This document shows, piece by piece, positions 23,874 through 25,674 of a stretch of DNA of 64,000 nucleotides. This stretch comes from an uncultured Nitrososphaerales archaeon (GTDB taxonomy: Archaea > Thermoproteota > Nitrososphaeria > Nitrososphaerales > Nitrososphaeraceae). Every line of letters begins with the position of its first letter. Position 1 is the first letter of the stretch. The position numbers and the translations under genes were made by a program. The stretch is taken from assembly GCA_963841565.1 (NCBI GenBank), contig CAWJCY010000007.1, positions 1 to 64,000 of the forward strand. Direction: 5' to 3'. The notes under the pieces are model-generated. The model did not search any database, had not been told where the DNA came from, and saw only the letters and a program-made list of their open reading frames with translations.

Positions 23874-24353
23874 ACTGATTCATTACGCTCATAGAGGCCT
23901 GATAATTTAATCCTTTAGAAGGGGCCTGTGACTCAATTCTTGAATTAAGCTATATCCTCCCGGCCGTATCATTAAACAATAGGTTAGCCCTAACAGCCGA
24001 TACCAGCTGATTTCTAGGCTGTAGAGGCTCAAATGATAAAGAGCCTACGGTTTGATTGGTTTCATAGGGCAAACGAGCCTAGGAAAAGCCCAGGGATTAG
24101 AAAAGCCCATGAATGTTCCATGGAATCAAAGATTTGGACTGTCGATAATCCACAATTTCATCATTAAAATGGGTATTGCAACCACGATCTTAAATTACAA
24201 GTTCGGACATATCCACTGATCTGATTACCCTCACCTCACAAAAGTATTCATTCCTCCAGTACGTCCCCAATCAGTTGGCACTCTAATTGTGCTGAGGGAT
24301 TAAATCGAAAGCCTTTTAGGCTCTCGCTTCATAAACTGTTTGTAGCAATAGCT

Positions 24354-25388
24354 ATGTCTACACTTCTAACTGACCGTGTTTGGGTAATGCTTTCAGAGGT
24401 TGCTAAGAGAGGAGTATATCCATTGCATGCGTCTAGACTTGGATTGTATAGAATTCCGATTGATCTTACCAATACTGCAGAGATTACCCAGGTAGCCAGT
24501 GAAATGAAAAAATTAGGGTTTTCTGTAGATACTTATGCTGACAGGATATACATCACTTACAAATGGACTGAGGAAGAGTTCGATCAAATAGAAAAGAAGG
24601 ATTTGAAAGCTACCCTTTCCATTATGGTAGAGATTGTAACAGGAGAAGTTGTGGATATCATTTATCAGATTAAACCTCTAGAGTATTTCGGTGATCATTA
24701 CTGGATCAAGAACTACAGGGTCAAGGCCGACCAAAATGCAAAAATGATTCTAGATACTATTTTGCTCAACACCAAAATAGGAGATAAACTAATTGCTCAC
24801 TATCAAAAAGCTAACAAGTTATCCTTTGAGGAAGCAGTAAAAAAATTACAAGATCTTTCACCCCTGGCAAAAAGTCCTAAAAATAGACTAGCTAGTCCGC
24901 CCAGCGCAGAGACCCCACCGCAAATGCCTGAAGCCAGATCACCGTCTGTCTCAGGCCCTGAGCAGAAGCAGCTGGAAGCACCTCCTTCTCCACAAATGAG
25001 TGGAGCGGGAAGTGGAAATACAACCATATCGCTGACGGGCAGCGGAACAAGCTACTCCAAAGCTGAAGGTCCAATTGACCCTGATTTTAAATCAAAGCGT
25101 AGCGTTGTTGGAACATTCCAAGATATAAAGGTCTGGGGTGAAGTGGATCCTCCTGGACGATTGGGTATCTGGGGTTCAGAAGTTACAGTAGATTTTGATA
25201 TCTGTGTTGCAGATGGAGCTTGTATTGAAGCATGCCCTGTGAATGTTTATGAATGGCTTGATACTCCTGGACATCCTGCCTCTGAAAAGAAACCATTTAT
25301 GATTAGAGAAAAGGATTGTATATTCTGTATGGCATGCGAAAATGTCTGTCCTCCTCAGTGTGTAAAGATATTCAATAAAGGACAATAA
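24354..25388 (+). CDS. Unknown N-terminal domain fused via a Pro/Ser linker to a Zfx-type dicluster ferredoxin
   Basis: [12 protein letters not shown] and [44 protein letters not shown] matches the Sulfolobus zinc-ferredoxin scaffold. Confidence 0.88.
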
Positions 25389-25614
25389 GAAACACCAAAT
25401 AATTCAAAACAGGATCGAATTAATCCCTTCTGAGACCTGAAAGTATCGTTGTAAATAAACAAATATCGTCTATAAGGTGCTAAATCCTCTGCTAAATCTA
25501 GGGGCAGTATACATTAGTATTCTGTGAAGCGTGAAACAAGATAATTCTAGGTCGTATCAATTAACGCTATAGACTCAAGAGGCATGTGATTTTAATTTAG
25601 TAAATCCAGAAAAT

Positions 25615-25674
25615 GCTGGGTCAGTTACCCTAGTTCTTTCTTCATAGATCAGAGTATTCATTCATCATCCCCGC
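25615..25674 (-). ncRNA. Box C/D guide sRNA
   Basis: Minus strand: GGG-ATGATGA(C)-ATGAATACT-CTGA(D')-TCT-ATGAAGA(C')-AAGAACTAGGGTAA-CTGA(D)-CCC with terminal stem; TATA-like TATAAAA about 20 nt upstream. Confidence 0.75.

Follow-up and report, generated by a model that had tools for sequence, protein, structure and literature searches.

A box C/D sRNA conserved across Nitrososphaeraceae with a predicted 23S rRNA target, and a probably fortuitous match of its guides upstream of a ferredoxin-fusion gene

The window analysed here comprises the first 64 kb (64,000 nucleotides, nt) of contig C7 (CAWJCY010000007.1) in the genome of an uncultured, soil ammonia-oxidising Nitrososphaeraceae archaeon (GCA_963841565.1, referred to as G000; 2.05 Mb, 13 contigs, about 40% GC). 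Its minus strand carries, at 25615-25674, a 60-nt box C/D small RNA (sRNA), which is convergent with a ferredoxin-fusion gene (24354-25388, plus strand). This sRNA is found throughout the family, and the most likely role of its D guide, as predicted from its pairing, is to direct 2'-O-methylation of the 23S rRNA of the same genome at C2520, the equivalent of Escherichia coli 2441. Both of its guides are also complementary to short stretches upstream of the ferredoxin-fusion gene, which a preliminary description of this DNA had taken either for a target in a cis-linked mRNA leader or decoy RNA, or for a degenerate second copy of the sRNA. On the whole, the element is probably an ordinary rRNA guide accompanied by a fortuitous, non-functional and species-confined upstream match; of the other explanations of the match, a decayed duplicate comes next and appears unlikely, and a young functional cis target is more doubtful still.

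Structure and conservation of the sRNA

Read 5' to 3' (25674 to 25615), the sRNA has the sequence GCGGGG-ATGATGA-ATGAATACT-CTGA-TCT-ATGAAGA-AAGAACTAGGGTAA-CTGA-CCCAGC. A terminal stem (GGG/CCC) encloses the C box (ATGATGA, 25668-25662) and the D box (CTGA, 25624-25621), and between these lie, in order along the minus strand, the 9-nt D' spacer ATGAATACT (25661-25653), the D' box (CTGA, 25652-25649) followed by the 3-nt loop TCT, the C' box (ATGAAGA, 25645-25639) and the 14-nt D spacer, or D guide, AAGAACTAGGGTAA (25638-25625). A covariance model (R1) built from the five sRNA copies of the genus recovered, at a threshold of E <= 0.01, one homologue each in 54 of the 61 family genomes that form the comparison set. 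The preliminary description had recognised a near-canonical C/D sRNA at this place; with all four boxes and the terminal stem present and with homologues in most of the family, 25615-25674 is, as judged from its sequence, a genuine box C/D sRNA conserved family-wide. Such an RNA would assemble with L7Ae, Nop5 and fibrillarin, and the genes of fibrillarin (PF01269, 272 bits) and Nop5 (PF01798, 217 bits) adjoin each other on contig C3.

In an alignment of 33 sRNA copies (A3) the C, D', C' and D boxes are conserved, C and D without any variation, and the core of the D guide, ACTAGGGTA (nine nt, positions 2-10 counted from box D), never varies; free variation is seen at guide positions 1 and 11, in the flanks and in the D' spacer. 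The C' box is ATGAAGA in this genus; other genera have ATGATGA or GTGATGA. Taken together, the stretch from C to D spans 37 nt, near the canonical length. An unpublished genome (G013) supplies one row of this alignment (L034) and one of the six genus comparisons described below, and the conclusions are unchanged without it (32 rows, and the upstream match in 1/5 genus genomes).

The sRNA starts 226 nt past the stop codon of the ferredoxin-fusion gene, and the two genes do not overlap. Within the genus it occupies the same convergent position in all five loci with enough downstream flank, and in 12 loci of other genera no sRNA was found within 450 nt downstream of the ferredoxin-fusion gene.

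No Rfam family matches the sRNA at gathering thresholds, as expected for a family that is not yet curated. Below these thresholds, eleven archaeal CD-box families (sR9, sR2, sR1, sR5 and others) align over their full length to 25619-25672, the best being sR9 (28.9 bits against a gathering score of 36 bits, E 0.002). RNAalifold predicted no consensus structure for the 33 copies, and the minimum-free-energy folds of 29 distinct sRNA cores are not more stable than those of shuffled sequences (mean z 0.13).

Compared with other genera (loci L061 and L062), the genus carries a 4-nt insertion (ATGA, a duplicate of the C-box end; region 25646-25668, minus strand), which is offset by a 4-nt loss before the D' box, with the conserved element ATACTCT displaced. 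The distance from C to C' stays at 30 nt despite this shift, and its constancy suggests, as far as the alignment can tell, selection on the overall geometry of the ribonucleoprotein (RNP). A strict four-box regular expression yielded only three C/D candidates genome-wide; among them is a second four-box candidate, outside the window at C7:83916 (minus strand; GTGATGA-9 nt-CCGA-6 nt-GTGACGA-11 nt-CTGA).

Predicted target of the D guide in 23S rRNA

The D guide forms nine contiguous Watson-Crick pairs with the stretch TTACCCTAG of its own 23S rRNA (large-subunit, LSU, positions 2516-2524; C7:143973-143981, outside the window, in the 23S gene at C7:141458-144435). This stretch aligns to E. coli 2437-2445 with the landmarks G2447, A2451 and C2452 in register, and so bears out the match to helix 74 near E. 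coli 2441 that the preliminary description had given. With its nine Watson-Crick pairs, the D guide reaches the nine consecutive canonical pairs used for target prediction in the excerpted text of Dennis et al. 2015 (PMC4644070). For this duplex an energy of -13.7 kcal/mol is predicted. A 22-nt stretch around the target is exact in all 32 matches, which come from 27/61 family genomes; the remaining genomes probably lack an assembled 23S gene.

In the proposed mechanism the D guide would pair with the 3' strand of helix 74, beside the peptidyl-transferase ring, and the small RNP (sRNP) would 2'-O-methylate the nucleotide opposite guide position 5 (N+5). This nucleotide is C2520 of the 23S rRNA, which is paired to G and corresponds to E. 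coli 2441. Thus, the sRNA may serve as a family-wide example that comes with a precise prediction, a 2'-O-methyl group at the equivalent of 23S E. coli 2441, beside the peptidyl-transferase centre.

Among tRNAs, the best match of the D guide is to tRNA-Thr(GGT), with 10 pairs including three G:U and N+5 at position 32; some ARAGORN -i predictions with kilobase introns are spurious. This candidate was rejected and the 23S target preferred, because the invariant guide nucleotides U3, G6 and U8 fit the 23S rRNA by Watson-Crick pairs and the tRNA by wobble pairs only.

The D' spacer

No convincing rRNA or tRNA target of the D' spacer was found in its own genome, the best being seven Watson-Crick pairs and one G:U at LSU 1579, and a comparison of the D' spacers of all family members with 16S (C7:139437-140905 in this genome) and 23S rRNA revealed no common site. 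The strand that partners the D-guide target in helix 74 was considered as a D' target and rejected, since it is not complementary. The D' spacer is hypervariable across the family: within the genus alone it reads ATGAATACT, ATAAATACT, TTGAATACT, TTGATTACT or ATAACTACT; the differences are at positions 5, 7 and 9 as counted from the D' box, and position 5 is the one that would direct methylation. It is also short for a guide, having only 9 nt. The D' spacer is probably not an independent methylation guide. The excerpted text of Lui et al. 2018 (PMC6009581) describes a comparable case in Pyrobaculum, where 28% of guides (292/1052) are orphans for which no conserved mRNA targets were found; the present sRNA resembles these in that a conserved rRNA guide stands beside a second spacer which diverges fast and targets neither rRNA nor tRNA.

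The D' spacers of many family members, among them TTACTCTTT, ATACTCTAT and TTACCCATT, show complementarity to the D guide over its 3' half (AGGGTAA/T) and so imitate the 23S target. When columns 24-31 of alignment A3 are set against columns 62-69 (25625-25661, minus strand), 63.4% of cells pair in register against 31-51% when the two parts are slid. The outermost pair covaries (AU 9, UA 8), the observed covariation measures are reached by 37 to 61 of 500 shuffles, and folding energies are not better than those of shuffles. This self-complementarity could reflect a helix by which the RNA masks its own guide, or a vestige of the guide's origin.

Complementary sites upstream of the ferredoxin-fusion gene

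Two sites upstream of the ferredoxin-fusion gene, both on the plus strand and both species-specific, are complementary to the sRNA. TTACCCT (24225-24231) is a 7-nt complement of D guide positions 1-7, next to box D, and AGTATTCATTC (24243-24253) is an 11-nt complement of the 9-nt D' spacer and the last GA of the C box; a TATA-like CTTAAAT precedes them at 24189-24195. All three elements lie where the preliminary description had located them. The order that it considered suitable for one RNA to occupy both guides, with the D site 5' and the D' site 3', is also confirmed: the sites start 18 nt apart, are separated by 11 nt and lie within 1.4 kb of the sRNA. The 7-bp pairing of the D guide with its upstream site (-8.8 kcal/mol) is weaker than its 9-bp pairing with the 23S rRNA. 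For the D guide, then, rRNA offers the better target; for the D' spacer it offers no convincing one. Two of the 11 pairs of the longer match would use the GA of the C box, which belongs to the kink-turn.

On whether the match exceeds chance, the results are divided. On the one hand, the 11-mer site is expected within +/-1.5 kb of the sRNA with a chance of about 0.003, and a 7-mer site within 60 nt 5' of it also with about 0.003, giving about 1e-5 for the joint match of 11 and 7 nt in the right order, 18 nt apart and within 1.4 kb, if treated as a single pre-specified test; accepting any guide 7-mer that lies within +/-60 nt raises this to about 2e-4. On the other hand, the two regions give no significant score in a simple local alignment (23, which 37/500 shuffles reach), and family-wide counts are at the level of chance: of 31 distinct family sRNA loci, two have an anchored D' complement of at least 9 nt in the flanks that were retrieved (the present locus and L045, the latter with a 10-mer), where chance predicts about 1.7. 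Genome-wide, the 11-mer has two non-self sites in 4,105,564 positions on both strands, close to the roughly 2.2 expected from about 40% GC, and the other of these extends to 12 nt in the sense strand of a coding region on contig C12, where it is an equally good complement of the D' spacer. The 7-mer has 222 non-self anchored sites.

A null set of 100,508 random 60-mer pseudo-sRNAs was used since the strict four-box pattern gave too few sRNA candidates (three) genome-wide. In the orientation free of tandem repeats it produced 14 events of at least 9 plus at least 7 nt, and none of at least 11 plus at least 7 nt. In the direct orientation there were thousands of events, dominated by real tandem repeats; long tandem direct repeats on contig C2 (about 27,700, 69,000-69,200 and 96,400-97,100, with offsets consistent with periods near 24-30 nt) account for most of them. 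A coincidence of the observed kind would be met occasionally when very many windows are scanned. The locus may also be useful as a calibration case, in which a striking double complement of 11 and 7 nt dissolves against relatives, promoter position and family-wide background rates.

One possible origin of the match, which appears unlikely, is a decayed sRNA duplicate on the minus strand (about 24262-24218), forming with the live copy a direct repeat around the ferredoxin gene. Such a duplicate would postdate the genus-specific 4-nt shift of the D' spacer and would since have lost its boxes and about 10 nt. The strand and order of the matches are the same as in the sRNA, identity reaches 13/15 positions into the C box (GGAGGA vs TGATGA), local direct repeats are far commoner than chance complements (253 of the 100,508 pseudo-sRNAs, nearly all in direct orientation), and duplications and remnants of sRNA genes are described for Pyrobaculum in the excerpted text of PMC6009581. 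However, a search of both strands of 10 genus loci with the family model (no filters, E<=10) found live copies only, and no CD-box Rfam family matches the place at E<=10. Nor is there similarity beyond the two matches: with these held fixed, the observed scores of the 5', middle and 3' segments outside them are reached by 0.71, 0.57 and 0.55 of 2000 shuffles. The loss of four boxes with 18/18 guide positions intact is unlike uniform neutral decay. Moreover, the region is homologous across the genus and less sRNA-like in other species, and a comparison with G001, L066 and the G010 type suggests that the G000 lineage acquired several of the matching positions instead of keeping them from an ancestor. 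The second copy postulated in the preliminary description is therefore not supported by these searches.

Divergence of the sites between relatives and position of the promoter

Of the six genus genomes with both the upstream spacer and the sRNA, G000 alone has both matches; the best anchored complements of the remaining five do not rise above background and are found at other places. In the nearest species, G001 (94% protein identity), the homologous place reads tctgttcatccttacctgacaaaa-tattcactc and the D' spacer ATAAATACT, so that both guide and site have changed and the pairing is lost. The D' spacer of G010 and of the metagenome locus L073 is identical to that of G000, the upstream sequence is different and there is no site. 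Covariation between guide and site, a check named in the preliminary description, is thus absent. The identity of the 18 site positions to those of relatives is similar to that of the surrounding spacer (14/19 vs 0.70 in G001, 13/19 vs 0.56 in L066, 11/18 vs 0.59 in L073 and 11/18 vs 0.56 in G003). In these alignments the two sites diverge at the same rate as the spacer, that is, neutrally between species. The spacer between a tRNA gene and the ferredoxin-fusion gene is itself indel-rich and fast-evolving, and is largely gone in L017.

The motif GTCTGA (24219-24224, plus strand; ATCTGA in G000), just 5' of the D site, is kept in 8/10 genus rows despite the fast evolution of the spacer. A plus-strand C/D RNA ending at this motif was considered and rejected, as no C box was seen by eye and no model matched on either strand.

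The block CGAAAGCCTTTTAGG (24306-24320, plus strand), downstream of both sites, is the likely B recognition element and TATA box (BRE/TATA) of the ferredoxin-fusion gene, as a TTTTA[GA] motif is found at -49 to -29 from the ATG in 28/28 loci across the family and order. From the usual archaeal spacing between TATA box and start, transcription would begin near 24338 and leave a leader of about 15 nt. The complementary sites, at -129 and -111 from the ATG, lie 60-90 nt upstream of the BRE/TATA block. Their transcription would therefore require a further promoter, one that is not conserved, and the mRNA leader probably does not include them. The TATA element is within a perfect hairpin or palindrome, AGCC-TTTTA-GGCT (24310-24322, plus strand), which is kept in most genus members and could be a candidate regulator binding site.

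These results bear directly on the idea of a young, species-specific cis target or decoy, which is improbable, somewhat more so than a decayed duplicate. A plus-strand RNA starting at about 24215-24222, by means of CTTAAAT, would be bound by both guides of the sRNA, and either be methylated at 24229 and 24247 or act as a sponge or chaperone partner, so coupling expression of the ferredoxin gene to the sRNP; this elaboration is just as doubtful. Lower still stands the possibility that the sRNP has recently gained a second, cis-linked substrate in one species, a promoter-upstream or alternative-leader RNA of the ferredoxin-fusion gene clamped by both guides (9 and 7 bp); this RNA would be methylated by the sRNP or would titrate it. 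The sites are absent in 5/5 other genus genomes and show no covariation with the guides, evolve at the rate of the spacer and lie upstream of the conserved BRE/TATA block. The 99% relatives have CATAAAT in place of CTTAAAT, and in other species the sequence does not resemble a TATA box. The D' spacer has only 9 nt and is hypervariable in the family, the D pairing only 7 bp, and there is no family-wide excess of nearby complements. The cis-linked leader or decoy of the preliminary description thus found little support, and the match is probably fortuitous, because it occurs in one species only, shows neutral divergence from one species to the next, is probably not part of the transcript and gives a weaker pairing than rRNA does.

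Several observations weigh against an ordinary rRNA guide with a fortuitous upstream match, and those that concern the upstream sites favour a cis target. On the side of the guide, the methylation of C2520 is a prediction, the A at guide position 10 is invariant yet unpaired with the 23S rRNA, and the spacers, with 9 and 14 nt in almost every one of the 33 copies (8 nt in two D' spacers), depart from the length of about 12 nt usual for archaeal C/D sRNAs. On the side of the sites, the similarity is limited to the guides and spares the boxes, as expected of a target, with the right order and a suitable spacing, and the strict joint probability is about 1e-5. By parsimony (G001, L066 and G010-type sequences), the G000 lineage seems to have acquired several of the matching positions, such as site positions 1-2. 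In three metagenome contigs from this species (99% protein identity) neither the two sites nor the sRNA have changed, whereas 26 of 362 other aligned columns of the spacer differ; this is uninformative, because zero changes in 18-29 positions has P of about 0.12-0.26. Transcription of 24215-24260 may still occur, and antisense or mRNA roles of archaeal C/D sRNAs are suggested, though not shown, in the excerpted text of PMC6009581.

If the cis-target explanation holds, archaeal C/D sRNAs would have their first documented target other than rRNA and tRNA. A recently gained cis substrate would link a redox gene with an RNP that modifies the ribosome, and a non-rRNA target would have been caught at its birth.

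Comparison with known systems

The archaeal C/D sRNAs that direct rRNA methylation (Rfam sR9, sR2, sR1, sR5) are like the present sRNA in having about 55-60 nt, the order C-D'-C'-D, a short terminal stem and a 9-pair guide to 23S rRNA near the peptidyl-transferase centre, and in the presence of genes for fibrillarin and Nop5. In contrast to the Rfam CD-box families, it scores below every gathering threshold (at best 28.9 vs 36 bits), has spacers of 9 and 14 nt instead of about 12 nt, and belongs to a mesophilic host. C/D sRNAs are well catalogued in hyperthermophiles, and a literature search found nothing that joins them with Nitrososphaeraceae or Thaumarchaeota. The sRNA is probably an rRNA guide new for Nitrososphaeraceae, and it adds to a known RNA class in a lineage from which few such RNAs have been described.

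A precedent for a C/D guide that acts on a linked RNA is found in Euryarchaeota, where the box C/D guide in the intron of pre-tRNA-Trp acts in cis on the exons of the same precursor. In that case guide and target belong to one transcript and are conserved, whereas here the guide and the sites are on opposite strands, 1.4 kb apart and unconserved.

The Pyrobaculum sRNAs in the excerpted text of PMC6009581 include some that are convergent to the 3' end of a protein gene, as here, although in the present case there is no overlap and the sRNA lies 226 nt beyond the stop codon. The duplicated and remnant sRNA genes in the same text differ from this locus, where no recognisable remnant copy was found. 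Double-guide sRNAs with two rRNA targets within 100 nt, as given in the excerpts of PMC4644070, show a similar site geometry (D site 5', D' site 3', 18 nt here). Unlike theirs, the upstream sites are not in rRNA, are unconserved and probably untranscribed, and the 7-bp pairing of the D guide falls short of the nine pairs used in that work.

Transcript data and neighbouring genes

Assembled contigs of four metatranscriptome runs (four studies) cover 24438-25382, in the coding region of the ferredoxin-fusion gene, and 25804-26200. They cover neither 24200-24354 nor the sRNA and are uninformative there, being blind to strand, starts, small RNAs and modification.

The ferredoxin-fusion gene encodes a protein of 344 amino acids with a C-terminal 4Fe-4S ferredoxin domain (residues 277-336), and no Pfam family matched its N-terminal two thirds. 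Homologues occur in 58/61 related genomes. A shorter paralogue, 42 kb away and outside the window (C7:67040-67531), has the C-terminal 4Fe-4S part in common and is 81% identical over residues 179-343 of the ferredoxin-fusion protein. The contigs of many related metagenome-assembled genomes end inside the 4Fe-4S domain, and in other genera the sRNA is located 2.2-2.5 kb downstream of either ferredoxin paralogue. These contig breaks, together with the presence of the sRNA beside either paralogue, suggest that the paralogues may have recombined with each other.

The upstream spacer is bounded by an intron-containing tRNA gene (23777-23873, minus strand; Rfam RF00005, 56.2 bits), which was missed by ARAGORN. 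Its anticodon loop, read by eye as CTTGCAT, would make it a tRNA-Ala(TGC) with an intron of about 22 nt, and its promoter block is kept within the genus.

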